64,000 bases of DNA, taken from NCBI RefSeq assembly GCF_964355755.1, contig NC_092676.1, positions 6,735,888 to 6,799,887 of the forward strand, given 5' to 3'. This document shows positions 14,460-58,523 of the stretch, piece after piece. The position numbers and the translations under genes are program-made. The stretch is from Antedon mediterranea (taxonomy: Eukaryota; Animalia; Echinodermata). The number at the start of each line of letters is the position of its first letter. Position 1 is the stretch's first letter. The notes under the pieces were generated by a model. The model was not told the origin of the DNA. It worked only from the letters and a program-made list of their open reading frames with translations, and searched no databases.

Positions 14460-17379
14460 AAGGGGGATGTGTAGCATTGTACATACACTCAAATATATCA
14501 TATCAAATAAGAAATGACTTGTCTGCTATGATAAACGAGGGAGAGTGCATTATAATTGAATTAAAAAATAATGACAAATCAATTATATGTGGAATAATCT
14601 ACAGGCCCCCTAAAGCCCATATTCCAACATTTAATAATCAACTTAGTGAATTAATGCACATGATAAACAATAAAAATAAAAAGGCATACCTTATGGGTGA
14701 CTTTAACCTAGATCTACAAAAATATAACTGTGACAATAATGTTCAAACTCACGCAGACAACATGCTAACAGAATCTTTCATTCCACTAGTTAATAAACCC
14801 ACTCGAATCACAAAAGATACCGCAACAGTAATTGACAATATTTATACCAATTATCAGGAATTCCAAAATATTAACACAGGGATATTAGTTAACGACATAT
14901 CTGACCACTTTGCTGTTTTCTGCATGGATGATTCAGAAAATTATTCATTACCACGATCAGAAACATTTATAATAAAAAGAAGCTATACTGATCAACAAAA
15001 ACGGCAATTTAGACTTGAATTACAGGGCTATGATTGGCAATATGTAACTAGCATTGAAAATGCGAATGAATCATATAAACGTTTCTCAGATTCTTTAAAA
15101 ACAATGATAGATAAGCATTTCCCACTAAAAAGAGTTAGGTTAAAAGTAGATATAATTAAATCCCCGTGGATAACATATGGAATTCAAAAATCTCTTTGTA
15201 CCAAAAATAAATTATACATCAAATATAAACAGAAACCAACAGATATAAATAAATCTAAATAAAAGAAATATAAAAATAACTTAACATCAATAATAAGAGA
15301 AAGAAAAACTACTTATTACAAAAATGAATTTGAAAAGCACAAGAGTAATATAAAGAAAACATGGGGTGTCATAAACTCATTATTAGGTAGGAAGAAACAT
15401 CAAGACATGCCTCAAAAATTAAAATCAACTCCCATCAACTTAAGGACCCAACATCCATAGCCAATGCGTTTAACACATACTTTATAAATATAGGTGACCA
15501 AATGATAGGTGATGATAACCGTAATAGTAACACCGAATATAAAATACAACATGACATTTTGAATTCAATGTTTTTTAGAGCTGTATCCGAGTCCGATATC
15601 ATTAAATACATTAATGACTTAAATGTAAATAAGTCAAGTGGTTGTGATGACATTGGTACCATTTATATAAAAAATAACTCAGATATACTGGCTAAACCGT
15701 TATCTCATATAATCAATGTATCCCTTCAATCGGGTGTATTTCCTTGTCAACTAAAAATTGCTAAAACAATTCCTGTGTATAAAAAAGGAGCAAGGGAGAA
15801 CATAGAAAATTATAGACCGATATCGATATTACCATGTATATCTGATGTTACATGAATCTCAATATGGATTCAGGGCAGGCCATTCAACTAACCACGCCCT
15901 CCTACAAGTCCTTGATAAAATAACAACAGCCGTTGACAACAAGCAATTTATGATTGGCGTATTTTTGGATTTATCCAAGGCGTTCGATTCGATAGATCAT
16001 GAATTATTGCTCACAAAATTGCCCCTTTATGGAATAAGATGCGTGGTTCTTGATTGGTACCGAAGCTACCTTAGTGAAAGACAACAATTCGTACAAATTG
16101 GGAAGTGTCAGTCTGTAACCAAAATAATAAAACAAGGCGTTCCACAAGGGTCAATCCATGGACCCCTGCTGTTTTTGATTTTCATAAATGACATGTTTTC
16201 TGTAAGTAATGTCGTTGATTTAATAATGTTTGCAGATGATACGAATATGTTTTTACAACACAATGATATTGTCACTGCCTACAATAATGACAAATGAACT
16301 AAATAAAATTGAGAAATGGTGTAAAACTAATAGATTAACTATTAATACAACCAAGACTACGTTTATGATATTTAGTGGAAAGAATACCAACATTGACACA
16401 TCCCAATTTGTACTTTCAATAAATAGAGTTTCAATAGATAGAGTACCATATACAAAATTTCTCGGTGTCATCATTGATGAGAAACTGAACTTTAGACACC
16501 ATACTAATGCAGTTTCTTGTAAAGCATCCTCAATAATTGGTGCCATGTGTCATATAAAAAATTTAGTATCTACTGAAGTGTTACTTACCATATACAAGAC
16601 ACTTATATTACCAGTGTTGACATATGGTATTATTGTATGGGGTGCGGGAATCAAAGAAAATTTGGATCGCCTTATTGCTTCAGAAAAAAGCTCTTAGGAT
16701 CATTTGTAAGGTAGCCTTTCATCATCCCTCTTCTCAGCTCTTTGTGAAAACGGGCACATTTAATATATTTGATTTGTATAAAAACAGTGTTTTAAATTTT
16801 ATGTTCAAATACCAAAAAGGACAACTTCCAAAATGTTTTAATTCTTTATTCAGTTTATTTGATAATTATCATACATATAACACTCGAAATAAAGAAAATT
16901 ATTGTATAAAATTAAAATCAACTAATATGGGTCAGCAAAGTATAGCATATAGAGGACTTAAGCTATGGAATCAACTTATAAGAAATATAAGAGAGAGTGA
17001 AAATATATCAATATTTAAAAAACTATTACTAAATAAATGCATTAATAGTTATAAAGAAACAATATATCTCTGCGAAAACAACATTTGTAAAATATGTCTA
17101 ACTTTAACTTAATTAATTAAATTTTCGTATATATTCTGAGACTGTGATGTATATATATATTATATTATAGTACGTTGTATTTTCCTTCATTTATTTACTA
17201 CATGAAAACATTTTTGTAATATATTTGTAAATTTATATTTTAAGTTAGGGTGCCACAGATTAAAAGCTTCGCTTGCTTGTGGTTATCCTGTTTTTCACAC
17301 TTTATTGTACTTAATTTTATATTTATATTTTTATGAATGTTGTGTGAAAAATAAAAGAATCAATCAATCAATCAATCAA
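14460..17379 (+). mobile_element. L2/CR1-group LINE (endonuclease + RT), 5'-truncated and disabled, inserted antisense in NLR-A
   Basis: Endonuclease motifs IYRPP, MGDFNLD, PTRIT, SDHFAV; RT motifs QYGFR, FLDLSKAFD, GVPQGS, FADDT; 3' UTR stem-loop and (AATC)n tail; one stop at 15260 and about four frameshifts. Confidence 0.96.
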
Positions 17380-20300
17380 TCTCCTGCGTCATAAGCTGTT
17401 ATTATTGTATTCATTTTCTCACCTGATAAATTGCAATTATGCATAAAAAGTTTAAGCATTTTACGAGACTTACACAAGAAAGTACCTAGTAAAGTACCAT
17501 CGATGTCACTGAGATCATTATTGTCAATATATAGCTCTTGTAGTTCAAAGTGATCTCCTACATCATAGGCTGTGATAAGTGTATTCATTTTCTCACCTGA
17601 TAGTTTACAATCATTCATGTAAAGTTTACGCAGTTGAGGTGACTTACGCAAGAAAGTACCCAGTAAAGTATCATTGATGTCACTGAAATCATTATTCCAA
17701 ATATATAGCTCTTGTAGTTCAAAGTGATTTCCTACATCATATGCTGTGATAAGTGTATTCATTTTCTCACCTGATAGTTTACAATCATTCATGTGAAGTT
17801 TACGCAGTTGAGGTGACTTACCCAAGAAAGTACCCAGTAAAGTACCATTTATGTCACTGAAATCATTATTCCAAATACATAGCTCTTGTAGTTTTAAGTG
17901 ATCTCCTGTATCATAAGCTGTTATTATTGTATTCATTTTCTCACCTGATAGTTTACAATCATTCATGTAAAGTTCACGCAGTTGAGGTGACTTACGCAAG
18001 AAAGTGCCCAGTAAAGTACCATTTATGTCACTGAAATCATTACTCCCAATATATAGCTCTTGTAGTTCAAAATGATCTCCTGTGTCATAATCTGTTATTA
18101 TTGTATTCATTTTCTCACCTGATAAATTGCAATTATGCAAAACAAGTTTAAGCAATTGAGGAGACTTGCACAAGAAAGTACCTAGTATAGTGCCATCGAT
18201 ATCACTGAGATCATTATTGTTAATATATAGCTCTTGTAGGTCAAAGTGATCTCCTACATCATAGGCTGTGATAAGTGTATTCATTTTCTCACCTGATAGT
18301 TTACAATCATTCATGTGAAGTTTACGCAGTTGAGGTGACTTACGCAAAAAAGTACCCAGTAAAGTATCATTGATGTCACTGAAATCATTATTCCAAATAT
18401 ATAGCTCTTGTAGTTCAAAGTGAAACCCTACATCAATAGCTGTGATAACTCTATTCATTTTCTCACCTGATAATTTACAATCATTCATGTGAAGTTTACG
18501 CACTTGAGGTGACTTACGCAAGAAAGTACCTAGTAAAGTACCATCGATGTCACTGAGATCATTATTGTCAATATATAGCTCTTGTAGTTCAAAGTGATCT
18601 CCTGTATCATAAGCTGTTATAATAGTATTCGTTTTTTCACCCGATAAATTGCAATTACCTATGTCAAGAATAATCAACGTATGTGACTTACTCAAGAAAG
18701 TACCCAGTAAAGTATCATTGATGTCACTGAAATCATTATTCCAAATATATAGCTCTTGTAGTTCAAAGTGATTTCCTACATCATATGCTGTGATAAGTGT
18801 ATTCATTTTCTCACCTGATAGTTTACAATCATTCATGTGAAGTTTACGCAGTTGAGGTGACTTACCCAAGAAAGTACCCAGTAAAGTACCATCGATGTCA
18901 CTGAGATCATTATTGTCAATATATAGCTCTTGTAGTTCAAAGTGATCTCCTACATCATAGGCTGTGATAAGTGTATTCATTTTCTCACCTGATAGTTTAC
19001 AATCATTCATGTAAAGTTTACGCAGTTGAGGTGACTTACGCAAGAAAGTACCCAGTAAAGTATCATTGATGTCACTGAAATCATTATTCCAAATATATAG
19101 CTCTTGTAGTTCAAAGTGATTTCCTACATCATATGCTGTGATAAGTGTATTCATTTTCTCACCTGATAGTTTACAATCATTCATGTGAAGTTTACGCAGT
19201 TGAGGTGACTTACCCAAGAAAGTACCCAGTAAAGTACCATTTATGTCACTGAAATCATTATTCCAAATACATAGCTCTTGTAGTTTTAAGTGATCTCCTG
19301 TATCATAAGCTGTTATTATTGTATTCATTTTCTCACCTGATAGTTTACAATCATTCATGTAAAGTTCACGCAGTTGAGGTGACTTACGCAAGAAAGTGCC
19401 CAGTAAAGTACCATTTATGTCACTGAAATCATTACTCCCAATATATAGCTCTTGTAGTTCAAAATGATCTCCTGTGTCATAATCTGTTATTATTGTATTC
19501 ATTTTCTCACCTGATAAATTGCAATTATGCATAACAAGTTTAAGCAATTGAGGAGACTTGCACAAGAAAGTACCTAGTATAGTGCCATCGATATCACTGA
19601 GATCATTATTGTTAATATATAGCTCTTGTAGGTCAAAGTGATCTCCTACATCATAGGCTGTGATAAGTGTATTCATTTTCTCACCTGATAGTTTACAATC
19701 ATTCATGTGAAGTTTACGCAGTTGAGGTGACTTACCCAAGAAAGTACCCAGTAAAGTACCATTTATGTCACTAAAATCATTATTCCCAATATATAGCTCT
19801 TGTAGTTTTAAGTGATATCCTACTTCATAAGCTGTTATTATTGTATTCATTTTCCAACCTGATAAATTGCAATTTTGCAAAACAAGTTTAAACAATTGAG
19901 GAGACTTGCACAAGAAAGTACCTAGTATAGTGCCATCGATATCACTGAGATTAGTATTGTTAATATATAGTTCTTGTAGTTCAAATTGATCTCCTACATC
20001 ATAGGCTGTAATAACTCTATTCATTTTCTCACCTGATAATTTACAATCATTCATGTAAAGTTTACGCAGTTGAGGTGACTTACGCAAGAAAGTACCCAGT
20101 AAAGTACCATTTATGTCACTGAAATCATTATTCCAAATACATAGCTCTTGTAGTTTTAAGTGATCTCCTGTGTCATAAGCTGTTATTATTGTATTCATTT
20201 TCTCACCTGATGAATTGCAATTTTGCATAACAAGTTTAAGCAATTGAGTAGACTTGCACAAGAAAGTACCTAGTATAGTGCCATCGATATCACTGAGATC

Positions 20301-23300
20301 ATTATTGTTAATATATAGCTCTTGTAGTTCAAAGTGATCTCCTACATCATAGGCTGTGATAAGTGTATTCATTTTCTCACCTGATAGTTTACAATCATTC
20401 ATGTAAAGTTTACGCAGTTGAGGTGACTTACCCAATAAAGTACCCAGTAAAGTACCATTTATGTCACTGAAATTATTAGTCCAAATACATAGCTCTTGTA
20501 GTTTTAAGTGATCTCCTGTGTCATAAGCTGTTATTATTGTATTCATTTTCTCACCTGATAAATTGCAATTTTGCATAACAAGTTTAAGCAATTGAGTAGA
20601 CTTGCACAAGAAAGTACCTAGTATAGTGCCATCGATATCACTGAGATCATTATTGTTAATATATAGCTCTTGTAGTTCAAAGTGATCTCCTACATCATAG
20701 GCTGTGATAAGTGTATTCATTTTCTCACCTGATAGTTTACAATCATTCATGTAAAGTTTACGCACTTGAGGTGACTTACCCAAGAAAGTACCCAGTAAAG
20801 TACCATTTATGTCACTAAAATCATTATTCCCAATATATAGCTCTTGTAGTTTTAAGTGATATCCTACTTCATAAGCTGTTATTATTGTATTCATTTTCCA
20901 ACCTGATAAATTGCAATTTTGCAAAACAAGTTTAAACAATTGAGGAGACTTGCACAAGAAAGTACCTAGTATAGTGCCATCGATATCACTGAGATTAGTA
21001 TTGTTAATATATAGTTCTTGTAGTTCAAATTGATCTCCTACATCATAGGCTGTAATAACTCTATTCATTTTCTCACCTGATAATTTACAATCATTCATGT
21101 AAAGTTTACGCAGTTGAGGTGACTTACGCAAGAAAGTACCCAGTAAAGTACCATTTATGTCACTGAAATCATTATTCCAAATACATAGCTCTTGTAGTTT
21201 TAAGTGATCTCCTGTGTCATAAGCTGTTATTATTGTATTCATTTTCTCACCTGATAAATTGCAATTATGCATAACAAGTTTAAGCAATTGAGGAGACTTG
21301 CACAAGAAAGTACCTAGTATAGTGCCATCGATATCACTGAGATCATTATTGTTAATATATAGCTCTTGTAGGTCAAAGTGATCTCCTACATCATAGGCTG
21401 TGATAAGTGTATTCATTTTCTCACCTGATAGTTTACAATCATTCATGTGAAGTTTACGCAGTTGAGGTGACTTACCCAAGAAAGTACCCAGTAAAGTACC
21501 ATTTATGTCACTAAAATCATTATTCCCAATATATAGCTCTTGTAGTTTTAAGTGATATCCTACTTCATAAGCTGTTATTATTGTATTCATTTTCCAACCT
21601 GATAAATTGCAATTTTGCAAAACAAGTTTAAACAATTGAGGAGACTTGCACAAGAAAGTACCTAGTATAGTGCCATCGATATCACTGAGATTAGTATTGT
21701 TAATATATAGTTCTTGTAGTTCAAATTGATCTCCTACATCATAGGCTGTAATAACTCTATTCATTTTCTCACCTGATAATTTACAATCATTCATGTAAAG
21801 TTTACGCAGTTGAGGTGACTTATGCAAGAAAGTACCCAGTAAAGTACCATTTATGTCACTGAAATCATTATTCCAAATACATAGCTCTTGTAGTTTTAAG
21901 TGATCTCCTGTGTCATAAGCTGTTATTATTGTATTCATTTTCTCACCTGATAAATTGCAATTATGCATAACAAGTTTAAGCAATTGAGGAGACTTGCACA
22001 AGAAAGTACCTAGTATAGTGCCATCGATATCACTGAGATTAGTATTGTTAATATATAGTTCTTGTAGTTCAAATTGATCTCCTACATCATAGGCTGTGAT
22101 AACTGTACTCATTTTCTCACCTGATAGTTTACAATCATTCATGTGAAGTTTACGCAGTTGAGGTGACTTACCCAAGAAAGTACCCAGTAAAGTACCATTT
22201 ATGTTACTGAAATCATTATTCCAAATAGAGAGCTCTTGTAGTTTTAAGTGATCTCCTGCGTCATAAGCTGTTATTATTGTATTCATTTTCTCACCTGATA
22301 AATTGCAATTATGCATAACAAGTTCAATCAGTTTACGAGACTTACACAAGAAAGCACCCAGTAAAGTACAATCGATATTACCGAGATCATTATTGTTAAT
22401 ATATAGCTCTTGTAGTTCAAATTGATCTCCTACATCATAGGCTGTGATAACTGTACTCATTTTCTCACCTGATAGTTTACAATCATTCATGTGAAGTTTA
22501 CGCAGTTGAGGTGACTTACGCAAGAAAGTACCCAGTAAAGTACCATCGATGCTACTCAAATCATTATTCCAAATATATAGCTCTTGTAGTTCAACGTGAT
22601 CTCTTAAATCATAGGCTGTTATAATTATATTCATTTTCTCACCTGATAGTTTACAATCATTCATGTAAAGTCCACGCAGTTGAGAAGACTTACACAAGAA
22701 ATTACCTAGTAAATTACCATCAATGTCACTAAAATCATTATTACCAATATATAGCTCATGTAATTCGAACTTACCTCCTGTATCATAAGCTGTTATAATT
22801 ATATTCATTTTCTCACCTGATAGTTTACAATCATTCATGTAAAGTCCACGCAGTTGAGAAGACTTACACAAGAAATTACCTAGTAAATTACCATCAATGT
22901 CACTAAAATCATTATTACCAATATATAGCTCATGTAATTCGAACTTACCTCCTGTATCATAAGCTGTTATAATTGTATTCATTTTCTCACCTGACAGTTT
23001 ACACTTATCCATGTCAAGTGTACGCAATTTAGGACACTTACTCAAGAATGTACCTAGTAAAAAACCATCAATACTATTGAAATCATTGTCAAACATATAA
23101 AGATCCTGTAATTCTAACTTATCTCCTACATACCCACTCATCATTTCGTTCATTATTTCCCCTGATAATTTACTGGAAAAGATGCTAAGAGTATGCAGCT
23201 TACGAGACCAACCCAAAAAAATACCCAATAAAGTACCATCAATGTCACGGATATCATTTTTCCCAATATAAAGCTCTTGTAAATTTAACGTATCATTTGC

Positions 23301-23632
23301 ATACACTTTTATCATTTCATTCAGCGCGTGTCCTGATAGCTTACAATCATGCATGACAAGTTTACTAAGTTTAGAAGTTTTATGGAATAATGCACCCACC
23401 AAAGTACCGTCAATGTCACTGAAATTATTTTTTCTACTTTTAACATTTTGTATTTCTAACTCTCTTTTTCGATATTCTCTTCTCGTTTCATTAATTAACG
23501 CAACTGGTATTGTGTAAGCCTGTGATTTTATTGTATCTAGTTTAGGGAATTTACTCGAGGATGTAGCCAATGTAGTACTGTCGATTCCAGTGATATCACT
23601 ATTTTCTCGAACGTTAAGTATATTTAGCTTAG
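17376..23632 (-). CDS. NLR-A large exon, distal frame: ~2080 aa of RI-like LRRs
   Basis: Uninterrupted frame of LxxLxIxNNxLS / LxxLxMxDCxLS pairs. It begins at the frameshift near 23632 and ends at a TGA formed in the LINE tail. Confidence 0.88.
17380..23000 (-). repeat. Coding tandem array, 174-bp (58-aa) unit, about 32 copies, with higher-order blocks
   Basis: Unit spacing 174 bp; near-identical blocks at offsets 696, 1044, 1392 and 1740 bp (all multiples of 174). Confidence 0.95.
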
Positions 23633-26156
23633 GTTAGGTTACAGTATCCATTGAATGCAGTTGCTTGTATGCCACTGATATCATTGCCAATATTAAGCTC
23701 CCGTAATTGTAACTTATCACCTTCATACATTTTTATCAATTTGTTCAATAAATCACCCGATAGTTTGCATTCATGCATGTCAAGTATACTCAGATTAGGA
23801 CATTTACTCAAGAAAGTACCCATTAAAGTATCATCAATGCTACTGATATCATTATTAGCAATATTAATCACTTGTATTTCTGATTCATCTACTATAATAT
23901 ACTCTTTTATCATTTTGTTCATTATGGCACCTGTTAGGTTACAGTTATGCAGGTCAAGTTTAAGAAGCTTAGGAGACAATCTTAATAAAGTACCAAGTAA
24001 AGTGCCATCAACTTCATTGATGTCATTTTCCTCAATACAAAGCTCTTGTAATTGTGACTTACTTCCAGTATACTCGCTTATGATTTTATTCATTACATCG
24101 CCCGATAGTTTACAACCATGCATGTCAAGTCTAAGTAGGGTAGGCATCTTACTCAAGAAGGTACCAAATAAAGTACCATCAATGTTGCTGAGATTATTTT
24201 CAGCTATGATGAACATTAATATTTTTGGCGTATCTTTCTCACTACACTTACAGATACCATCGATTACTTTTCCTGATAGATTGCAATGACTCATCTCAAA
24301 TGAAATATAAAAGGGAGACAACCTCATTAAATAATGCAGTAATTTATAATCGATGTTTATGAGATTATTATTGCTTATATTGAGGTTGTTTATTATCAAC
24401 CCACCACCCATTACAGACCACTCTCTAATCATATCATTCATTACATCACCTGACAGATTGCAATTACGTATGTCCAGTGTAGGTGTAAAGAAATATGTTA
24501 TATGTGCAAGAATTTTTCCTCTGCTATCAATAGATAATGTATTACAGAATTTCTTTAAATCATGCTCAATAAGATTCATTTTACTGAGTTGCCATATACA
24601 ATGCATAAAATGCTCACCCACCCCTAAATTTGGATTGAAGTGCGCAATAAACATGTTTAATGAGTTTGATAAGGCTGTGTGTTGTAGGTTCATATTGTCC
24701 ATGTGATATGTAAGGTCCTTGTTCACATAATCATGATGTTCATCTGTTACACATTTAAAGTAAGTATGTATCAAAGGACGATACGTTGATACATCACAAG
24801 TAACCCAATGCTTTAAGAATTTACCTGCATTTATACCAAGAAATCCAACTGCAAAGCTATTTGCCATTGTTAAATATGGACACTTTGTTACTACATTCCA
24901 CTCAGTTTCATATTGTCTAACATATGCTGCGCACTCATTCGTCATACCTTCATTTTCACAGAGTTTGTATAAATAAAACCCTACTAGTGATTCTAGTATT
25001 AATTTATGCTTAGTAGAAAAGAAAACTTCACTTTTGCCTCGTGACCTCGATGCTTCTTCATTAATAAATCCTAGGTTAAGGGTCATCTTAACCATGTCCT
25101 TATTTTTATTAGCTTCCAAATCACTTTTTTTAATTGAAAGCTGATTTTTTTTCAAGGTATCATACATACACTTACCAAGAAAAATCATAGTATTTGCTAA
25201 TTTTTCTGGAATATTTTCAAATTTCAAAACACTTTCTTGGTTTTCATATTTCGCAATGTAATGATTTACATTGCAGCACAAAATTTCTTTGAAAAGGTCA
25301 GCATTATTAGAAGGAAGAATTTGTTTGTCTTCCCAAATAATACAAATTAAGAGAAGTAACAAAGGAGTTTTGCACAATTCATATGCTTCGAAATATTTAC
25401 GTTTATATTTAGGATTATCGTTTTTAACGTCTAATTGCTGCCTAAGAACATTCCCCAATTCAGGTTTTTCAAAAAACTCAAAATGGTTCTTAATATATTC
25501 CCCAATGCTATAATGGTTAAATCCCTTCACTCTTACATGTACATCGCATTTTTTGATAAATTCATCTATATTTTCTAATCGCGAGGTAAGTAGCACAACA
25601 CTCTTTCCTAACGTTTTCTTCTTAAACAGATTCAACAAGTTTTCCTTCTTACAACGTAATTCATCTAAACCATCTATTAAAAACACAGTTTTATGGGCAT
25701 GATTCATTATGAATTTTTTAATTGAGGATGAATCTTGTTGAAGATCTGTTGCCATGTTAAAATCTTCCATATCAAGTTGTTTTTCAATCAGATCAAATAT
25801 TGTGTTGCCTTCCTCTAGATCCCTTACATTAAATAAAAATACAATTTTACCTTCAAATGCGATTGGTTTCTTTTCAGTTGTTCTGTATGCTATGTACCTG
25901 AGTAGAGTTGTTTTGCCAATGCCAGCCTCGCCATCTATAAGAACTTTACATCCACTCGTGGATTCGATCGTGTTTAATAATGCTGGTAACGTCGTTGGAT
26001 GGCTGTCTCTCGTCTTATTGTTTTCTTTGAGAAGGTCCAACTCAGTGAAGATTTTGATGTCTACAATGTCTCTGCTATTCATTATTGATGGTGTGAATGC
26101 TTCGTTCTCCATTTGACATAGTTGTTTTTGTCTTGCAAGCAAGTAATTTTCTATTA
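23629..26156 (-). CDS. NLR-A large exon, proximal frame: NACHT NTPase, winged helix and first LRR block
   Basis: Walker A GEAGIGKTT, Walker B VFLIDGLDE, sensor-1 LLTSR, CKTPLLL, HKLILESLVG; phase-1 acceptor ttttataatag at 26157. Confidence 0.93.
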
Positions 26157-27945: not shown

Positions 27946-27990
27946 CTTCATCATTATCCTGAGTAGATGACATTGAACTAACTGACATTT
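27946..27990 (-). CDS. NLR-A 45-nt linker exon (MSVSSMSSTQDNDE)
   Basis: ttttacag / gaag|gtatg, phase 1-1; homologous to 53638-53682. Confidence 0.8.
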
Positions 27991-29008: not shown

Positions 29009-30207
29009 GGCCGGGAATAACATACACTAATACGGTAACAGAAAGGACAGCAATGAGATATGAGGAATACGCATTCCTCTTGATAGGCATATAATATTGA
29101 TTAACTCAAAATAATGTTGGAACCAGATGATAATGTCTGTTATTTTACAAATAAAGTGCAACTATTTGTCTTCCTCTGTTTGTTATAGTAGTTTGAGAAA
29201 ACATTATTAGGGACTTAAAAAGGTCATATTGCTCTATTGATGGTTGTGCATTTTAACTTAACTTGAACTTTATTATCGCAATACATTATATAAATAACTT
29301 GAAGTTGAACATAAAAAATCGCATATAGAAAATACAAAGCATAGCACTCAACACGTAATCAAAGATAAACAAGATACATAAAGAACAAATTAAATACACA
29401 CGCCGGGCTGTGCAGTATTTTACCAGTTCATGAAAACACAATGGTTTGTAATAAATGATTTTGATGTTTTAGTTTTACATAATGGTAAATAAATTTCGTT
29501 ACTGTGTGTTAGACAAGACGAAGTGGATTTTGCAAATTCAAAATCATTTTTAATAACCAATACTGCATGTTAATCTTCTTTTATGTTTATACTGCGTATG
29601 TTTTATTTTAAAACAGTATCGTAATTTTCAAACCGTACTATTTTTTTTTTCATACTTATTAGGAACTGTGCGTAAAATAAATATGAGTCTGAATTAAGTA
29701 ATAAACACTCTTAACTAATGTTATTTCTTTAATTGCGTAATTAAAATGAATGCAACATCACGGTTATTCAAATTATAATTCTATACTGGGAGCTACTTGT
29801 TTAGAACTTATTGCTTCACCTGCATCTTTTTCATGTTCATTATTATCATTTAGAAATTGTTTAATTATTTGTATATGAGTAATACTGGATGATTATTAAA
29901 ATTAAACTATATATTAAATAGACAGTAAAAGTTTAAAAAGTAAAAACCGACAAATTGAAAACCCTAAGTAATTAGAAAGTCATAAATTGTCATGGATTTT
30001 TTTCATTTTCAATTAAAAACTCAAAAAACTATTGTTACATATAATTTTTCACAATATCAATATAAAGAATACAGTATTTAAAAAGAAACTAACCATGTTT
30101 AATGAAAGTGATCTCAAACGGGTATATAGTCATTGAAATAAAAATCATCACTAAATCTATATCTTCATTAAAATAAAAAGTTAAAATCAAGGCAAAGAAA
30201 TACATAC

Positions 30208-30730
30208 TAAGTAGGCCGAGTTCTATCTGGGCTCGTTTTCCAAGAATATTTGCCAACTCATTTAACTCTTTTGGTAAAATTAATTCCTTCTCCAACTCAA
30301 ATATCACATCCCAGAGGCTTTTATATGGCTTTAGTCGATACTTTGATGTAACCTTCCGTGCCGCAGCAGGAGATCCAGATTGTCTCACAGCCCGAAAGAG
30401 TCGTTCTCGTTCTGGTTTCAACCTATTTTCACCAGTACATTTGATATTGTTATCTGCTATATACTGACGTACAAGATGTTCAGCATCTTTTGGGCCGGTT
30501 AATCTGGTAATCTCCAACAAAAGGTTGACATCAGTTGGTGTAATAACACCAGTGCCACCATTGCTATCGAGCTTGTTGAATAAATCATTTGCAATAGATT
30601 CTGTATCAGTAAGGTCTCCTAGTTGCAGATGATCACCTAGGCAAAATCTCAACAATTTGTAGTCTTCTCCTTCGTAATGCTTACCAAGTTTGGATTTCAA
30701 ATCTCTAAACTTACTCTCAAGGTCTGACAT
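30208..30730 (-). CDS. NLR-A first coding exon: tandem DED-like death-fold domains
   Basis: ATG at 30730 after an acceptor at 30751; DED-like pattern LLRFCLGD...DLFNKLD...ITPTDVNLLLEI followed by a second similar helical unit; donor a|gtatgt. Confidence 0.85.
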
Positions 30731-31230
30731 TTTTCAAAACATTTGTTTGTCTGCAAAAACAATTTAATTTAAACATGACGAATGTAATCAGGAATAGGTT
30801 TCATGTTGTATTTTTTATTTTTGCGGTTTATTGTGCGTTACTTATGTATGTCTAATTGTATTTTACCGTCATGAGCTGGCTACAGCACGTTAGAATTCTA
30901 TTAGAGGAATATAAAGGGGTTTGAACAAATTAATCTGAAAAAAGGCCTAAAGCATTTTTTTATAATTTCATGTATTTTTTAGAAGATCTGTTTTCATAGC
31001 TACAGTATAGGCCTAAACTTCTCTTTTATATATAGCTTTTACAGACCTCCTAAATTGCCCTTTCCAACATTCACAAATTGTGCAATGAATAAACACACAT
31101 TAGAACGTTATAAATGCAGTACTCAGTCATCAGTCACTGTGTCGAGACCACTACCTTGTGGTATTCCGATTTCAATGTTTCTTTTTTGTTGAATATTTTA
31201 CTATCAACTTGCGTTCTTTCACTAAGGTTT

Positions 31231-32063
31231 TTAGTCGCGTTGAAGCGACTCTATAGTTCACTATGTCGGTCGGTCGGTCTGTCTGTCTGTCGGTCTGTCT
31301 GTCGGTCTGTCTGTCGGTCTGTCTGTCGGTCTGTCTGTCTGTCGGTCCGGTATCACTATGCGTTTTATCGCTTTCTGACCTTATCTTGATATCAGTTTAA
31401 TCTAGCTAGGTCAATTTTTCACAGTATATTCCTTATGGCCAGGAATCAATGTGGTTATGTTTTCACGGTGCGCAATAAAAAATTACGCGGTCTACGCACG
31501 ATTTAACGAAATCACGTTTGTAATCATATCTTCACAACCATGAATCACAATTAAATAAAATTTGGTACTCATAAATTTCAGGGCAAAAATCCTCATATGG
31601 CAATACAATTACGTGCGTAGCGCATGTAACGCATGCGTACGCGCGCTTAACATTTTCAAAATTCATTTTCGATGAAATAAGAGTACATTTCAGGCAATTT
31701 TAAGCGTTTACAAAATTGCCATGAGTGCGCATATTTTTGCGCGCGCACTGCGCGTTAAATGTTGTTGCGCACTATTTTTGCCCGATTTCTGTTTTCTTGA
31801 CTTACTTTTCAACTCGAAATTACGTTATACGAGCACGTCGAAAGTGACAGGCTACGCACGTGTAAATTAAAAAAAAATAAATGTTTTTAAACATTTCAAC
31901 ATTTTTAAACATGTTCAGTAATTTCGGTCAGTATAGTTCACTATGTCGGTCGGTCGGTCTCTCTGTCTGTCTGTCTGTCGGTCTGTCGGTCTGTCTGTCG
32001 GTCTGTCTGTCGGTCCGGTATCACTATGCATTGTAGCACGCGACTTAATGGCTGTTGGCCTTG
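31231..32063 (+). mobile_element. Helentron-associated (HINE/DINE-1-like) element
   Basis: Subterminal inverted repeat agtcgcgt / acgcgact, two (GTCT/GTCG)n core repeats, 3' stem ggc..gcc-ttg; sits in a T run with no TSD; absent at the paralogous site near 59022. Confidence 0.85.
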
Positions 32064-41383: not shown

Positions 41384-41389
41384 TAAAAT

Positions 41390-45007: not shown

Positions 45008-48000
45008 TTAAACAAATCCGGGTCGAAAGTCTCTAATAGACACACACAGTTGTATAAAGCTCTCTAACTCATCTAATGACGAAATTCTCAACATGTCATT
45101 ACACGTGTCAATAAACCAAATAATCATATCTCTCTCATCATCACTGATATCATTCTTGTCAGTAAACAATTGCAAATATTTTGGTTTAGCTCTGATCAAT
45201 TCATTCATTACATCATCCGATAGTTGGCAATTGTTTATATCAAGCGTACGCAGTTTAGGAGAGTTATTCACTAAAACACACAGTAGAATTGCGTCAATGT
45301 CTCTGAAGTAGTTATTCCCAACATTAAGCTTATTTAATTGTAACTCGTCTTTTGCAAACTCTATAATAATTTCATTCATTGCATCACCTTGTAGTTTACA
45401 ATTATTCATGTTGAGTATGCGCAACTTAGAGGAGTTATACAAAGTAGTTCCAAGTAAAGTACTATCAATGTGACTAATATTATTATTTCCAATGTCAAGC
45501 ACTTGTAATCCGCTTGCATACATATTACTTACAACGTTACATGATAGATTACAATTATTCATGTTAAGTACACACAGCTTTTGTGACTTATATAATAAAG
45601 TACCAAATGAAGTACTGTCGATGTCACTAAGATTATTATTGTTAACATGAAGCTCTTGTAATTTTAAATCATCTGTTGTATATACTTTGATCATTTTATT
45701 CATAACGTCACCTGATATTTTACAATTATTTATGGCAAGTTTACGTAGATCTGGAAACTTAGTCAAGAATGTACCCAGTAATGAGCCATCAACGTCACTT
45801 ATTTCATTATTCGCAATGGACAACACTTTTAAGTCTGACTGATCTCTTGCATATGCACCCATCATTCTATTTATTACGTCACCTGATAGTTTGCAATTAT
45901 CCATGAAAAGATCACGCAATCTAGGAGACTTAGCTAAGAAATTACCCAACAATGTACCATCAACGTCACTTATATCATTATTCGCAATTGACAACACTTC
46001 TAATTCCGACTGATCCCTTACATACGCATTCATCATTGCATTCATTATGTCTCCCGATAGTTTGCAATCATACATGTGAAGATCACGCAACCTAGGAGAC
46101 TTACCTAAGAAAGTACCCAGTAATAAGCCATCAACGCCACTTATATCATTATTCGCAATGAACAACACTTTTAATTCCGACTGATCTCTTACATATGAAT
46201 CCATCATTGCATTCATTATGTCTCCCGATAGTTTGCAATCATACATGTGAAGATCACGCAACCTAGGAGACTTACCTATAAAATTACCCAGTAATGAGCC
46301 ATCAACGCCACTTATATCATTATTCCAAATGGACAACACTTCTAATTCTAACTGATCTCTTGTATACGCATCCATCATTTTATTCAACACGTCACCTGAT
46401 AGTTTGCAATCATGAATGCGAAGATCACGCAACCTAGGAGACTTACCTAAGAAAGTACCCAGTAATGAGCCATCAACGCCACTTATATCATTATTCCAAA
46501 TGGACAACACTTCTAATTCTAACTGATCTCTTGTATACGCATCCATCATTTTATTCAACACGTCACCTGATAGTTTGCAATCATGAATGCGAAGATAACG
46601 CAACCTAGGAGACTTACCTAAGAAAGTACCCAGTAATAAGCCATCAACGCCACTTAGAGCATTATTCCCAATGGACAACACTTCTAATTCCAACTGATCC
46701 CTTGCATACGCATCCATCATTTTATTCAACACGTCACCTGATAGTTTGCAATTATGAATGCGAACATCACGCAACCTAGGAGACTTACCTAAGAAAGTAC
46801 CCAGTAATGAGCCATCAACGCCACTTATATCATTATTCCCAATGGACAACACTTGTAATTCCGACTGATCTCTTACATACGCATTCATCATTGCATTCAT
46901 TATGTCTCCCGATAGTTTGCAATCCTGTATGCGAAGATCACGCAACCTAGGAGACTTACCTAAGAAAGTACCCAGTAATAAGCCATCAACGCCACTTATA
47001 TCATTATTCGCAATGAACAACACTTCTAATTCCGACTGATCTCTTACATACGCATCCATCATTGCATTCATTATGTCTCCCGATAGTTTGCAATCATACA
47101 TGTGAAGATCACGCAACCTAGGAGACTTACCTATAAAATTACCCAGTAATGAGCCATCAATGCCACTTATATCATTATTCCAAATGGACAACACTTCTAA
47201 TTCTAACTGATCTCTTGTATACGCATCCATCATTTTATTCAACACGTCACCTGATAGTTTGCAATCATAAATGCGAAGATCACGCAACCTAGGAGACTTA
47301 CCTAAGAAAGTACCCAGTAATAAGCCATCAACGCCACTTAGAGCATTATTCCCAATGGACAACACTTCTAATTCCAACTGATCCCTTGCATACGCATCCA
47401 TCATTTTATTCAACACGTCACCTGATAGTTTGCAATTATGAATGCGAACATCACGCAACCTAGGAGACTTACCTAAGAAAGTACCCAGTAATGAGCCATC
47501 AACGCCACTTATATCATTATTCCCAATGGACAACACTTGTAATTCCGACTGATCTCTTACATACGCATTCATCATTGCATTCATTATGTCTCCCGATAGT
47601 TTGCAATCCTGTATGCGAAGATTACGCAACCTAGGAGACTTACCTAAGAAAGTACCCAGTAATAAGCCATCAACGCCACTTATATCATTATTCGCAATGA
47701 ACAACACTTCTAATTCCGACTGATCTCTCACATACGCATCCATCATTGCATTCATTATGTCTCCCGATAGTTTGCAATCATACATGTGAAGATCACGCAA
47801 CCTAGGAGACTTACCTATAAAATTACCCAGTAATGAGCCATCAACGCCACTTATATCATTATTCCAAATGGACAACACTTCTAATTCTAACTGATCTCTT
47901 GTATACGCATCCATCATTTTATTCAACACGTCACCTGATAGTTTGCAATCATAAATGCGAAGATCACGCAACCTAGGAGACTTACCTAAGAAAGTACCCA

Positions 48001-51000
48001 GTAATGAGCCATCAACGCCACTTATATCATTATTCCAAATGGACAACACTTCTAATTCTAACTGATCTCTTGTATACGCATCCATCATTTTATTCAACAC
48101 GTCACCTGATAGTTTGCAATCATGAATGCGAAGATCACGCAACCTAGGAGACTTACCTAAGAAAGTACCCAGTAATAAGCCATCAACGCCACTTAGAGCA
48201 TTATTCCCAATGGACAACACTTCTAATTCCAACTGATCCCTTGCATACGCATCCATCATTTTATTCAACACGTCACCTGATAGTTTGCAATTATGAATGC
48301 GAACATCACGCAACCTAGGAGACTTACCTAAGAAAGTACCCAGTAATGAGCCATCAACGCCACTTATATCATTATTCCCAATGGACAACACTTGTAATTC
48401 CGACTGATCTCTTACATACGCATTCATCATTGCATTCATTACGTCACCTGATAGTTTGCAATCATACATGTGAAGATCACGCAACCTAGGAGACTTACCT
48501 ATAAAATTACCCAGTAATGAGCCATCAACGCCACTTATATCATTATTCCAAATGGACAACACTTCTAATTCTAACTGATCTCTTGCATACGCATCCATCA
48601 TTCCATCCATTACGTCACCTGATAGTTTGCAATCATACATGTAAAGATCACGCAACCTAGGAGACTTACCTAAGAAAGAACCCAGTAATGACCCATCAAC
48701 GCCACTTATATCATTATTCGCAATGGACAACACTTCTAATTCCGACTGATCCCTTACATACGCATTCATCATTGCATTCATTATGTCTCCCGATAGTTTG
48801 CAATCATACATGTGAAGATCACGCAAACTAGGAGACTTACCTAAGAAAGAACCCAGTAATGACCCATCAATGCCACTTATATCATTATTCGCAATAGACA
48901 ACACTTGTATTTCTGACTGATCTCTTGCATACGCATCCATCATTCCATCCATTACGTCACCTGATAGTTTACAATCAGTCATGTTAATTGTATGCAGCTT
49001 TTGAGATTTACTTAAGAACGTACCCAGTAATGAGCCATCAACGCCACTTATATCATTATTCGCAATGGACAACACTTCTAATTCCGACTGATCTCTTGCA
49101 TACGCATCCATCATTGCATTCATTACGTCACCTGATAGTTTGCAATCATGCATGCGAAGATCACGCAACCTAGGAGACTTACCTAAGAAAGAACCCAGTA
49201 ATGACCCATCAACGCCACTTATATCATTATTCGCAATAGACAACACTTGTATTTCTGACTGATCTCTTGCATACGCATCCATCATTCCATCCATTACGTC
49301 ACCTGATAGTTTACAATCAGTCATGTTAATTGTATGCAGCTTTTGAGATTTGCTTAAGAACGTACCCAGTAATGAGCCATCAACGCCACTTATATCATTA
49401 TTCGCAATGGACAACACTTCTAATTCCGACTGATCTCTTGCATACGCATCCATCATTGCATTCATTACGTCACCTGATAGTTTGCAATCATACATGTGAA
49501 GATCACGCAACATAGGAGACTTACCTAAGAAAGAACCCAGTAATGACCCATCAATGCCACTTATATCATTATTCGCAATAGACAACACTTGTATTTCCAA
49601 CTGATCCCTTGCATACGCATCCATCATTTTATTCAACACGTCACCTGATAGTTTGCAATCATGAATGCGGAGATCACGCAACCTAGGAGACTTACCTAAG
49701 AAAGTACCCAGTAATAAGCCATCAACGCCACTTAGAGCATTATTCCCAATGGACAACACTTGTAATTCCAACTGATCCCTTGCATACGCATCCATCATTT
49801 TATTCAACACGTCACCTGATAGTTTGCAATCATGCATGTAAAGTTTAGGCATGTTATAAGACTTCCTTAAGAAAGAACCCAGTAATGACCCATCAACGCC
49901 ACTTATATCATTATTTGCAATGGACAACACTTGTATTTCTGACTGATCTCTTGCATACGCATTCATCATTCCATCTATTACGTCACCTGATAGTTTACAA
50001 TCAGTCATGTCAAGTGTAAGCAGCTTTGGAGATTTACTTAAGAAAGTACCCAGTAATGAACCATCAATGCCACTTATATCATTTTTCCCAATGCACAACA
50101 CTTGTAATTCCAACTGATCTCTTGCATACGCATCCATCATTTTATTCATTACGTCACCTGATAGTTTACAATCATGCATGTGAAGATCACGCAATCTAGG
50201 AGATTTACTTAAGAAAGTACCCAGTAATGAGCCATCAACGCCACCTATATCATTATTCGCAATGGACAACACTTGTAATTCCAACTTATCTTCTGCATAC
50301 GCATCCATCATTGCATTCATTACGTCACCCGATAGTTTGCAATCATGCATGTGAAGATCACGCAACCTAGGAGACTTATTTAAGAAAGTACCCAATAATG
50401 TCCCATCAACGTCTCTGATATCATTATTCCCTATATAAATCTCTTGTAATTCAAACTCATCTCTTTTACACGCCTCAATCATTTCATTCATTACGTCGCT
50501 TGTTAATTTGCAATCTTGCATGACAAGTTTACTTAGTTGAGGAGACTTACGCACAAAACAACCCAATAAAGTACCATTGATGTTACTGATATCATTTTTC
50601 ATAATATCACTGTTTTGAAAGTGGGACTCTCTTTTTGCATACACTCTGCTCATTTCATTTATTACAGTATGATCCTTTATTTCGTTCATTTTTAACTCGG
50701 GAGATTTAATCAAGAAAGTACGCATTGTGGTACCTTCAATTTTTCTGATGCAATTTGCTTGCAATTGGTTCTCACCTGATAGATTGCCATCATGGAGATC
50801 ATATATACGCAGCTTAGGAGAGTTACTCCAGAAATTACCAAATGAAATATTATTAATGTCACTGATATCTTGATTCCCAATATTAAGCTCCCGTAATTGT
50901 AGCTCCTCATTTCTCTCATTCAATTTTATAATTAATTTATTCAGTACTTCTCCTGTTAGATTGCAATAATGCATGTCAAGTACACTCAGCTTCGGAGATT

Positions 51001-53262
51001 TACTTAAGAATGTACCCAGTAAAGTACCATCAATGCCACTGATATTGTTATTCCCAATATCAAGAACTTGTAATTCTGACTCATCTCTTATATACACTCT
51101 CATCATTTTATTCATTACGTCACCCGATAGTTTACAATCATGCATGCCAAGTTTTATTAGCGAATGCGCATTATTCAAGAAATGTCCCAGAAGTGCACCA
51201 TCAATTCCACTGATGTCATTTTTCTCAATACAAATCTCTTGTAACTCGCCTCCTGTATAGACGTTTATCATTTTATTCATTATGTCACCTGATAGTTTGC
51301 AATCATGCATGTCAACTGTTAGCAGCTGAGGAATTTTTCTTAAAAAATTACCTAGTGAAGTTCCATTCATGTCACTGAGATTGTTTTTAGCCATATTAAG
51401 CATAAATATCTTTATATCTTCTTGAATTCTAATGTCATTCATTACTTTACCCGATAAATTACAATCAATCATCTCAAATGAAAGGTAAAGATGGGCCGAC
51501 ATCATTAATTTATGCAGTAATTTGGCATCAATGTTATTAAGATTATTTTGGCTGATTATAATACGTTTTAATTCCAGCTTATCACCCATTTTATACCACT
51601 CATCAATCATACATTTTATTACATCACCTGACAGATTGCATTTATGTAAATCAAGTGTAGATGTCAAAAAAAATGCAATGTGTGCAAGAATATTGCCTTT
51701 GCTTTCAAATGATAATGTATTACAGAATGTTCTCAAATCAAGTTCATTAAGATTCATTCTACTGAGTTCCAATATACGATGTATAAAATGCTCACCATTT
51801 GAATTAGAATTCGGATTAAAATGGGCAATAACATATTTCAATGACTTTGATACATCTGTATGTTGATTTAATCCTGAACTAACCATGTGATGTTTTAATG
51901 CATCTTTCACTACAAGATGATGTTGATCTTTAACATATTTCAAGTAATTATGTATCAAAGGACGATATGTTGATAAATCATTTGTAAGCCAATGCTTTAA
52001 GAATTTACCTGCATCAGCACCAAGAAATCCAACTGCAAACCTGTTTGCCGTTGTTAAATATGGACACTTCCTTACTACATTCCACTCAATCTCATCACTA
52101 TCAAACAGTTTATATAAGTAAAATCCTACTAGAGATTCTTGTATTAACTTGTGCGTAGGCATGTACATTTCACCCTCAGAATTAGATCTTAAATTTGATG
52201 TTTTTTTGTTAACGAATCCTAGTTTAAGTGCTAGCTCAACCATGTCCTTATTTCCATTAGCTTCCAAATCACTTTTTTTAATTGAAAGTTGATTTTGTTT
52301 CAAGCTATGATACATACACTTCCCTAACAATATCATAGCATTTCCATATGTTTCTGGAATAGTTTCAAATGTATAAACTCTATCGAGGTGTTCATGCTTA
52401 GCATTATATTGCTTCAATATGCAGCAAAATATTTCTTTGAAAAGGTCCGCACTATTAGTAGGAAGATTTTGTTTGTCTTCCCAAATAATACAAATTGAGA
52501 GAAGTATCAAAGGATTTCGGCACAATGCATATGCCAAATTGTTTGTGTCAACCTCTAATTCTTGCCTAAGGTCATTTGCCAATCCAGGTTTATCAATATA
52601 CCTCTTAATGCTATCTTTATTAAATCCTTTAACTCTCGCATGCACGTTACACTTTCTAATAAATTCATCCATGTTTTCAGATCGCGATGTCAGTAGCACA
52701 ACACTCTTTCCTAACGTTTTCTTCTTAAACAGATCTAACAAGCATTTTTTCTTACAACGTAACTCATCTAAACCATCTAATAACAACACTATTTTATGGT
52801 CGTGTTTCATTACAAATTGTTTGATTGCGCTTGCATCTTGTTGAAGACCTGTCTCCATATTAAAATGTTCCATATCAAGTTGTTTTTCAATCAGATCAAA
52901 TATGGTGTTGCCTTCCTCTAGATCCCTTACATTTAACAAAAATAAAAGTTTACCTTCAAATGCGATTGGTTTCTCTTCAGTTGTTTTGTATGCCAAGTAC
53001 CTTAATAGAGTTGTTTTACCAATGCCAGCCTCGCCATCTATAAGAACTTTACATGAATGCGTGGACTCAATAGTGGTTAATAATGCTGGTAACGTCGTTG
53101 GATGGCTGTCTCTCGTCTTATTGATTTCTTTTAGGAGGTCCAATTCAGTGAAGATGTTGATGTCGATAGTGTCTCTGCTATTCATTATTGATGGAGTGAA
53201 TTCTTCGTTGTCAATCCTGCACAGTTTTTTTTGTCTTGCAAGTAAGTATTTTTCTATTATTC
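45008..53262 (-). CDS. NLR-B giant terminal exon (8255 nt): NACHT, winged helix, about 75 LRRs and a C-terminal cap
   Basis: GEAGIGKTT, VLLLDGLDE, LLTSR, CRNPLILL, HKLIQESLVG; intact frame; phase-1 acceptor ttcatag at 53263. Confidence 0.96.
45700..50480 (-). repeat. Coding tandem array, 171-bp (57-aa) unit, about 28 copies, with higher-order blocks
   Basis: The NNALSG variant occurs at 46651, 47335, 48190 and 49729 (offsets 4, 5 and 9 x 171); 342-bp duplication at 48988 vs 49330. Confidence 0.95.
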
Positions 53263-53637: not shown

Positions 53638-53682
53638 CTTCATTCTCATCTTGAATCAGTAACGTTGTACTAACTGAAGTAT
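53638..53682 (-). CDS. NLR-B linker exon 3 (DTSVSTTLLIQDENE)
   Basis: ttttacag / gaag|gtaaat, 45 nt, phase 1-1. Confidence 0.8.
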
Positions 53683-54589: not shown

Positions 54590-54693
54590 TAGTAGTAATT
54601 AGTCTTGTTTATTTTTATTTCATTTATATGTAATTTTACTTTCTATGGACCAGAGATTCCGAAATAAAAGATTGAATGAATGAATGAATGAAT
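54590..54693 (+). mobile_element. Retroposon 3' end with AATAAA and (TGAA)n tail
   Basis: ctatggaccagagattccgaaataaaagattgaatgaatgaatgaatgaat. Confidence 0.55.
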
Positions 54694-54734
54694 AATGTTG
54701 TTTACTGATCACCATTAACAGATAATATACATAC

Positions 54735-54779
54735 CTTCATCAGACTCCTTTGGAGTTGTTGCTGGATTAACTGGAGTAT
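54735..54779 (-). CDS. NLR-B linker exon 2 (DTPVNPATTPKESDE)
   Basis: ttgtacag / gaag|gtatgt, 45 nt, phase 1-1; similar to the neighbouring mini-exon. Confidence 0.78.
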
Positions 54780-55351: not shown

Positions 55352-55399
55352 CTTTATTCGTTGCTTTACCTTCATTGGCTTCATGTTTTTTACTCTGAT
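55352..55399 (-). CDS. NLR-B candidate linker exon 1 (DQSKKHEANEGKATNK)
   Basis: ttttgatctag / aaag|gtatat, 48 nt, phase 1-1; an internal gaag|gtaaag donor would give 30 nt. Confidence 0.55.
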
Positions 55400-57185: not shown

Positions 57186-57988
57186 TATAGAAATAAATTG
57201 AAGTTGAACTTAAAATATCGCATATAAAAAATACAAAGCATAGCTGTGCAGTATTTTACCAGTTTATGAAAACACAATGGTTTGTAATAAATGGTTTTGA
57301 TCTTTTAGGTTTACATAATGGTAAATAAATTTCGTTACTGTGTGTTAGACAAGACGAAGTGGATTTTGCAAATTCAAATCCTTTTTAATAACCAATACTG
57401 CATGTTAATCTTCTTTTATGTTTATACTGCGTATGTTTTATTTTAAAACATTATCGTTATTTTCAAACCGTACAATTTTGTTTTTCATATTTATGAGGAA
57501 CTGTGCGTAAAATAAATATGAGTCTGAATGAAATAATAAACACTCTTAGCTAATGTTATTTCTTTAATTGCGTAATTAAAATGAATGCAAATCACGGATA
57601 TTCAAATTATATTTCTATACTGGGAGATACTTGTTTGGAACTCATTGCTTCACCTGCATCTTTTTCATGTTCATTATTATCATTTAGAAATTGTTTAATT
57701 ATTTGTATATGAGTAATACTGGATGATTATTAAAATTAAACTATATATTAAATAGACAGAAGTTTAAAAAGTAAAAACCGACAAATTGAAAACCCTAAGT
57801 AATTAGAAAGTCATAAATTGTCATGGATTTATTTTCATTTTCAATTAAAACTCAAAAAACTATTGTTACATACAATTTTTCACAATATCAATATAAAGAA
57901 TACAGTATTTAAAAAGAAACTAACCATGTTTAATGAAAGTGATCTCAAACGTGACAGGTATATAGTCATTGAAATAATAAATACATAC

Positions 57989-58523
57989 CTGTACTAAGTA
58001 GGCCAAGTTCTTTTTGGGCTCGTTCTCCAAGAAGACGTGCAAACTCATTTAAATCTTTTGGTAAAATGTCATTCTTCTCCAACTCAAATATCACATCCCA
58101 GAGGCTTGTAAGTCTATACTTTGTCAGATCATAATTTGTAGTAACTCTCTTTAATGCAGCAGGAGATGCAGATTGTCTGACAGCCCTAAACAGTCGTTCT
58201 CGATCTGGTTTCAACTTATTTTCAGCAGTTTTTCTAATATTGTTTTCTTGTATATACTGCTTTACAAGATCTTCAGCATCTTTCGGACCTATTAACCTGG
58301 TAATCTCTAAAAGGAGATTGACGTCATTTGGTGTGATATAACCTTTTCCACTTTTGTTATCAAGCTTATTAAATAAAGCATGTGCAATAGAGTTCTCATT
58401 AGAAAGGTCTTCTAGTGGTAAATGATCACCTACGCAAAATCTCAACAATTTGTAGTCTTCGCCTTCATAATGCTTACCAAGTTTGGATTTCAACACTCTA
58501 AACTTGCTCTCAATGTCTGACAT
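57989..58523 (-). CDS. NLR-B first coding exon: tandem DED-like domains
   Basis: Paralog of 30208-30730; donor acag|gtatgt, phase 1. Confidence 0.87.

Follow-up and report, generated by a model that had tools for sequence, protein, structure and literature searches.

Homogenised arrays of paired leucine-rich repeats in two neighbouring NACHT genes of the crinoid Antedon mediterranea

The leucine-rich repeats (LRRs) of vertebrate NOD-like receptors (NLRs) of the NLRP and NLRC types are not known to be homogenised. In NLRP3, each pair of LRRs occupies its own 171-nt exon, as a module of 28 + 29 aa (PMC6642158), and the longest human NLR, NLRC5, carries 27 to 38 LRRs (PMC11755879). In fungal NLRs of high internal conservation (HIC), the repeats are 80-100% alike, vary at few hypervariable positions, and are gained and lost by proposed unequal crossing over (PMC13449251, PMC4986451, PMC12222747); HET-D and HET-E recognise allelic variants of a self protein (PMC12222747). 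Section 12 of PMC13449251 states, on the basis of a SMART survey, that HIC NLRs occur in animals too, and PMC12222747 cites Hibino 2006 for an LRR NLR of this kind in a sea urchin. Here we analyse a 64,000-nt stretch of the A. mediterranea genome (contig NC_092676.1, positions 6,735,888 to 6,799,887; hereafter the window), which holds two genes in tandem on the minus strand, A and B, each joining sequence for tandem death effector domains (DEDs), a NACHT domain and a giant array of LRRs (Table 1). The explanation we favour, at a probability of about 0.68, is that a two-LRR unit was amplified about 30-fold in each gene by germ-line exchange, and that the encoded proteins are likely intracellular sensors of non-self.

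The locus resembles the fungal HIC NLRs (Podospora HET-E, HET-D, HET-R/NWD, and the ANK and TPR types) in combining a NACHT switch with a death-type effector, in having repeats that are more than 80% alike inside one gene but differ from those of its paralogs, in showing few hypervariable positions in each repeat, and in including pseudogenised members next to transposons (PMC13449251, PMC4986451, PMC12222747); the crinoid similarity values in this comparison are mean nucleotide or amino-acid identities, not T-REKS Psim. It differs from them in its repeat, a pair of LRRs, whereas fungal NLRs are described as devoid of LRRs (PMC4986451), in the number of units (26-32, or 52-64 LRRs, as against 10-12 WD40 repeats) and in its tandem DED effector. 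The animal HIC NLRs, one of them from an echinoderm, likewise have highly similar LRRs and are represented by the survey statement and a single gene; here, by comparison, the arrays of the two genes are intronless, and homogenised arrays recur across a crinoid family.

As for vertebrate receptors, the NLRP3 module has the same length as the gene B unit, and a ribonuclease inhibitor (RI)-class pair of N-type and C-type LRRs is common to both. The modular layout of one 171-nt exon per LRR pair was not found in either crinoid array, both being uninterrupted reading frames. The effector is a tandem DED where NLRP and NLRC receptors have PYD or CARD, and the giant arrays have two to three times the LRR number of NLRC5. 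DED effectors are known in invertebrate NLRs, and the invertebrate death-fold NACHT-LRR families (sponge clade C, Lottia, Capitella, Nematostella, sea urchin, amphioxus, Chiridota) show lineage-specific expansion with DEATH, CARD or DED effectors (PMC3879445, PMC8913654). NACHT and LRRs share one exon in sponge, Lottia, Capitella and Nematostella (PMC3879445), as they do here, with giant or homogenised arrays unreported in the available text of these two papers. An earlier note on this DNA had contrasted the locus with vertebrate and fungal receptors. Its account of highly conserved repeat arrays in fungal NLRs agrees with the three papers cited above, and NLRP3 and NLRC5 bear out its vertebrate half, both in the 171-nt two-LRR exons and in the smaller number of LRRs; the contrast was overstated, given the reported single-exon NACHT-LRR genes and animal HIC NLRs (PMC3879445, PMC13449251, PMC12222747). 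No paper on crinoid NLR arrays turned up in our literature search, which did not extend to Fig. 8c or the supplements of PMC13449251, where crinoid or other animal LRR cases could be listed. What appears to be new here is the giant, intronless and family-wide LRR version of an HIC-type principle that is itself known.

Architecture, homologues and predicted fold

The exon models of both genes were predicted from AG/GT sites and reading frame, using sequence only. The two genes are paralogs, as had been proposed, with a common DED exon, a NACHT domain and common introns that can be aligned (89-95% identity in aligned columns). Both carry the marks of an animal NLR, namely a NACHT domain with Walker A and B motifs and an N-terminal death-fold effector, and unit parsing agrees with the earlier estimate of about 70-80 LRRs per gene. 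The predicted gene B protein has 2,975 aa and no internal stop, splice sites having been chosen to keep the frame, and all of its LRRs are in frame with NACHT; gene B is the candidate working receptor. The claim that each array lies within one exon of more than 8 kb stands for gene B and fails for gene A, in which NACHT and array are in different frames and only about 9 LRRs are in frame with NACHT. Third-position G+C is higher in the gene B array (0.36) than in the gene B NACHT region (0.29) or the gene A array (0.26), for which a founder effect or GC-biased conversion are candidate causes.

The best homologues of the two genes are crinoid gene models, comprising 11 of the 40 matches listed in one search and 44/44 in another. 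Among the 40 matches listed, identity was 59% for two A. mediterranea proteins, 40-44% for the other crinoid and 27-32% for coral and unnamed proteins. These 55 crinoid homologues (P0001-P0011 and P0041-P0084) come from automatic annotation of A. mediterranea (33) and Anneissia japonica (22), include some isoforms, and share between 59% (P0001 and P0002) and 37% identity in the NACHT region. Their LRR motif count runs from 0 to 109, and 6/55 carry homogenised arrays of at least 10 units, with periods of 57-60 aa and each with its own unit sequence; the array of P0001 has about 47 homogenised 57-aa units. A search with the array region gave three matches, all crinoid, among the best 7,989 candidates scored, arrays elsewhere being still possible. 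Two Anneissia japonica homologues have unusual layouts: P0008 carries irregular LRR super-units of 113-133 aa with inserts, and P0003 about five tandem DED-pair modules before NACHT.

In each gene an exon of about 175 codons lies 4-5 kb upstream of NACHT, and its splicing to the NACHT region is predicted from splice sites and from homologue P0002. Pfam recognised in each of these first exons one weak DED, the first, below cut-off. An AlphaFold2 model of the gene B exon, built on a 36-sequence alignment, has 11 helices at a mean predicted local distance difference test (pLDDT) of 93.7 and matches the tandem DED of caspase-8 (Z 14.6, 155 aligned residues, root-mean-square deviation 2.9); Foldseek with the same model returned the same top matches. 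The DED-DED architecture proposed earlier is therefore right. A PDB sequence search with the DED exon gave no real match, and the Atlas DED clusters for residues 92-175 of P0002, at 0.82, were kept as a lead only. Among 18 of 60 relatives scanned, the same tandem-DED module, of ~170 aa, also sits on Roc-COR, NHL/RING, URGCP-GTPase, kinase, ubiquitin-like and other NACHT proteins, in up to four copies, and it may be a mobile one-exon effector.

The array unit consists of an N-type LRR of 28 aa followed by a C-type LRR of 29 aa (gene B) or 30 aa (gene A), so that both arrays show the alternating N/C-type beta-alpha repeats of 28-30 aa that define the RI class. The top six matches in a PDB sequence search with the array were ribonuclease inhibitors (E down to 1.8e-13). 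A single-sequence AlphaFold2 model of 20 gene B units (40 LRRs) forms a continuous beta-alpha solenoid (pLDDT 71.8; predicted TM-score 0.47). Its strands occupy positions 20-24 and 48-52 of the unit, and the variable positions fall on these beta-strands. Ribonuclease inhibitor is a curved horseshoe, and for this reason 70-plus curved LRRs would need a superhelix. Foldseek with the 40-LRR model gave partial matches only (best query TM-score 0.31), which are uninformative on pitch. Pfam matches within the arrays to MUM1-like PWWP, DUF6835 and BetaGal were rejected as summed repeat noise.

Unit turnover and variation within the arrays

Tandem Repeats Finder (TRF) delimits the gene A array at 17379-23131 (period 174, 33.1 copies) and the gene B array at 45690-50522 (period 171, 28.3 copies), with scores of about 7,000. 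Unit parsing gives 32 and 26 units, respectively, in line with the roughly 30-fold amplification that had been noted, and recovers the described lengths and motifs, 58 aa with GEKMNTxITAYDxGD in gene A and 57 aa with GDVxNxMMDAYxRDQ in gene B. Units are on average 86% (A) and 89% (B) identical in nucleotide sequence; in amino-acid sequence they are 77-79% identical within a gene as compared with 52% between A and B. When the two arrays were compared, no unit common to both was found, the best match between them being 63% (aa).

The order of units records repeated copying. Gene A has 17 unit types, in the order AABCDEFGHIFGHIJIFGHIKFLMNOPIKFLQ, and gene B 16, in the order ABCDEFGFHIJKDLMNKDMNKDLMOP (letters are assigned separately in each gene). 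Multi-unit blocks of 2, 4, 6, 8 and 10 units recur in gene A, whose longest exact repeat is 652 bp, and blocks of 4-5 units in gene B; nine pairs of units are identical in A and two in B. For 3/32 units in A and 8/26 in B, a mosaic of two parents is by far the better explanation, and in a test of the pairwise homoplasy index (PHI) type the incompatibility of neighbouring sites was below that of shuffled sites in each array (p = 0.0002). Units of the same gene have thus been homogenised, copied several at a time as blocks, and in part recombined to give mosaics, and blocks, mosaics, PHI-type test and unit tree uphold the view that this is an animal NLR pair homogenised by intragenic duplication and recombination.

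In a quick tree of the 141 distinct units found in A, B, P0001, P0002, P0009 and P0010, the array units of A and B cluster by gene, as the earlier note had expected. Those of gene A come together with a support of 98 (with a single outlier on a long branch), and those of gene B (94), P0002 (99) and P0010 (99) do so likewise, each in a group of its own; flank units 1, 2 and 4 are sorted by position, irrespective of gene (98, 98 and 87). In the same way, P0001 and gene B are 70% alike in their LRR flank and 59% alike in their arrays. The inner repeats therefore undergo concerted evolution, and the first flanking units descend by position. That the two arrays arose from different founder units, as had been stated, is one of two readings. 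Since no unit outside the arrays is more than 60% alike to the gene A array, different founders and one diverged founder appear to fit equally well. A lone 58-aa unit in P0001 was rejected as founder of the gene A array, with which it does not group.

We then asked where within the unit the amino-acid changes fall, taking as concave set the 10 exposed x positions of LxxLxLxxN/C and counting non-synonymous and synonymous steps (N/S) by a spanning-tree method rather than a codon model. The concave set received 25/65 of the non-synonymous steps in gene B (p = 6e-5) and 23.5/80.5 in gene A (p = 0.008), against an expected 18%, and at the other, scaffold positions N/S was about 0.55 (p = 0.015 and 0.005). 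Amino-acid change is thus held down on the scaffold, and the concave beta-strand has more than its share. The same held beyond this locus: concave entropy exceeded that of the other polar positions in 12/12 arrays (A, B and 10 crinoid homologues; p = 0.0002, Wilcoxon), in 10 of them individually at p < 0.05. The 10 homologues were chosen from the 55 as having at least four distinct units of the same length; P0004, P0007, P0008 and P0070 are among those left out. The concentration of variation on the predicted binding face is solid. At the four central positions, a post hoc choice, N/S was 2.36 in B (p = 0.011), 1.48 in A alone (p = 0.16) and 1.85 for the two genes together (p = 0.007), which suggests positive selection at concave positions.

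Decay of gene A

The earlier note had taken both genes for intact giant receptors, but only gene B is intact. Gene A is interrupted by a one-base frameshift between its NACHT part (26226-23629) and its array (23633-17376) and is truncated by a long interspersed nuclear element (LINE). Its predicted product has 1,031 aa and ends after about 9 LRRs, a size common among the crinoid homologues. Contigs of sample S1 (two runs), from which the window may come, show 0 differences from it over 23000-24448, so the shift is present in reads. Organism B yields a contig that is 96% alike and has one base fewer at 23637. A small intron at this site was rejected, as the sole GT-AG nearby spans 16 nt and the organism B contig is exactly one base shorter. 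A run X8 contig (about 92% alike, and RNA only by guess) whose alignment ends at 26156, the predicted acceptor, was not used, since a DNA paralog would end there too. In run X4 a single contig, at a similarity of at least 88%, covers the frameshift region (23449-23654), a second allele was not seen there, and its depth is near that of single intronic contigs. Gene A may be on one haplotype only, contig depth being no measure of copy number.

Across the array itself, the 24 distinct units of gene A are free of stops and indels. The LINE, of 2,919 bp and broken into five open reading frame pieces, supplies through its (CAAT)n tail the TGA at 17376 that stops gene A, and a 652-bp exact repeat lies directly before it. 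The 8.8 kb upstream of the LINE hold one disruption, whereas the remnant beyond it is decayed (Table 1). From this we infer an order of events: gene A first lost its C-terminal end, duplication then went on within an array that was still open, and the frameshift came last. In this individual gene A would be either a short form with 9 LRRs or a copy that is dying.

The DED exons of the two genes share 73% aa identity (alignment A1). At 81% nucleotide identity (73-79% mid-exon; synonymous divergence 0.37) they are less alike than the non-coding DNA that flanks them, which is 91% alike upstream and 95% downstream (29392-31232 compared with 57229-59028). Two histories are suggested: conversion that homogenised the flanking DNA and spared the exon, or an exon derived from another paralog. 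Mobile and repeated DNA elsewhere in the window is given at the end of Table 1.

Table 1. Features of the two genes and other DNA in the window (exon borders predicted)
Feature	Position	Strand	Basis and remarks
Gene B	58523-45008	-	five predicted exons
Gene B first exon: ATG, tandem DED (178 aa), phase-1 GT donor	57989..58523	-	sequence, AlphaFold2, fold match
Gene B linker exon 1, predicted, 48 nt	55352..55399	-	AG/GT; P0001 has similar linker text
Gene B linker exon 2, predicted, 45 nt	54735..54779	-	AG/GT, frame kept
Gene B linker exon 3, predicted, 45 nt	53638..53682	-	AG/GT, frame kept
Gene B last exon: NACHT, helical domains, about 72-76 LRRs, C-terminal cap	45008..53262	-	8,255 coding nt, one frame
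Gene B NACHT: Walker A GEAGIGKT, Walker B LLLDGLDE	52592..53047	-	Pfam PF05729 E 1.6e-20, translation
Gene B N-terminal LRR units, non-homogenised, position-conserved across paralogs	50330..51628	-	unit comparison
Gene B homogenised array: 26 units of 171 nt (57 aa), 24 distinct	45884..50329	-	TRF, unit parsing
Gene B divergent last units and C-terminal cap	45008..45883	-	translation, unit parsing
Gene A	30730-13790	-	DED exon to decayed 3' remnant
Gene A tandem-DED exon, 174 codons and one base	30208..30730	-	81% nt identity to gene B counterpart
Gene A linker exon, predicted, 45 nt	27946..27990	-	AG/GT, frame kept
Gene A last exon, open part: NACHT, helical domains, about 9 LRRs, premature stop	23629..26156	-	
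Gene A NACHT	about 25477-25944	-	Pfam PF05729 E 1.2e-20
One-base frameshift, array out of frame with NACHT	23633..23637	-	S1 contigs compared with organism B contig
Gene A homogenised array: 32 full units of 174 nt (58 aa) and partial unit	17379..22991	-	TRF, unit parsing
LINE: endonuclease/reverse transcriptase, 5'-truncated, frameshifted, within an LRR unit	14460..17378	+	Pfam Exo_endo_phos_2 E 2.8e-6
Gene A decayed 3' remnant, about 4 LRR units	13790..14459	-	two frame changes and three stops in 0.7 kb
Broken Gypsy-type retrotransposon	2781-6967		zinc knuckle, protease-like and reverse transcriptase-like pieces in several frames
LINE fragment with zf-RVT	4717-5622		interrupts the Gypsy-type element
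LINE 3' fragment with zf-RVT domain	36439-37014		
Minisatellite between the two genes	38498-40773		67-69-bp units, about 32 copies, 12-bp inverted repeat per unit; possibly transposon-derived

Competing explanations and significance

Several observations weigh against arrays maintained for recognition. Homogenised units number fewer than 10 in 49/55 homologues, and most homologues are short in LRRs, so that great length is not needed by the family. Taken over all 10 concave positions, N/S is 1.04 in gene A (p = 0.44) and 1.60 in gene B (p = 0.06); the four central positions were picked post hoc and are significant singly only in B, and the counts are small and based on spanning trees. Gene A is broken, by frameshift and LINE. 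The units of P0001 split into several groups in the unit tree, which comes from a quick search, a careful one being incomplete. Length polymorphism is the hallmark of fungal HIC NLRs, and the crinoid likeness to them rests on the sequence of single arrays. The ligand role and the expression of the genes are likewise predictions from the DNA.

The alternative that survives best, though we consider it improbable, is a neutral runaway expansion, in which unequal exchange proceeds without benefit, most repeats are surplus and concave positions are simply unconstrained. A concave N/S near 1 in gene A would fit it, as would the broken state of that gene, the spread of LRR motif counts (0 to 109 over the 55 homologues) and exact repeats of 341-652 bp, which denote recent and rapid copying. 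It is weakened by the purifying selection at scaffold positions, by concave variation exceeding that of other polar positions in every array compared, and by the integrity of the arrays, in which 0/58 units carry a stop or indel as compared with five disruptions in the 0.7 kb past the LINE; the four central positions of gene B, above the synonymous rate on a post hoc choice, point the same way.

Somewhat less probable still is that the receptors guard or type self molecules instead of microbes, in allorecognition or the control of cell death. This would be a variant of the germ-line amplification reading that differs in the ligand only. The tandem DED suggests cell death, and HET-D and HET-E set a precedent in reading allelic variants of a self protein (PMC12222747), yet pressure from pathogens predicts the same sequence pattern.

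That similar repeats were inflated or scrambled in assembly is very unlikely. Short-read assemblies are reported to omit or create such repeats (PMC12222747), some units are identical (nine pairs in A, two in B), and our comparison of read-derived contigs covers the flanks of the arrays, not the arrays themselves. Those flanking contigs match exactly, however, each array has 24 distinct units and no exact repeat above 652 bp, and the frames remain open. Other crinoid assemblies show comparable arrays built of other units, which argues against an artefact.

Lamprey variable lymphocyte receptors are encoded by an incomplete germ-line gene with flanking donor cassettes and are assembled in each cell. 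That immune cells similarly rearrange the crinoid arrays in a programmed, somatic way, so that every cell has its own receptor, would suit interchangeable in-frame cassettes with a variable binding face but is about as improbable as an assembly error: the window holds only the two genes and the gene A remnant, with no incomplete germ-line gene or donor cassettes found in it, gene B is complete, and germ-line exchange accounts for all observations.

Under amplification by germ-line exchange, unequal exchange and conversion between misaligned units would be the likely builders of the arrays. The concave face would bind ligand, and shuffling of units would yield new specificities, as for the fungal HET-E/NWD receptors. 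Binding would let NACHT oligomerise, after which the tandem DEDs would seed a FADD/caspase-8-type death or inflammatory filament, and the receptors would have an immune role. How a multi-turn RI-type solenoid might hold NACHT off is a structural question that such a protein poses. A bolder and distinctly tentative extension is that the crinoid family as a whole forms a recombination-driven receptor generator, in which units would be gained, lost and reshuffled so fast that each animal, and possibly each immune cell, would carry different multi-turn sensors of 70-110 LRRs with dozens of binding patches, coupled to a tandem DED of the caspase-8 type. A deuterostome would then have an anticipatory repertoire in the fungal style.

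The locus is compact and amenable to PCR, and would lend itself to measuring repeat gain, loss and shuffling and selection on the binding face, both from one individual to another and in germ line as compared with immune cells. Gene A illustrates birth and death in the family, with truncation by a LINE, probably continued turnover of the array, and then a frameshift that is absent from the organism B counterpart. Together, the two genes bear on the question of how invertebrate deuterostomes may broaden recognition without antibodies.

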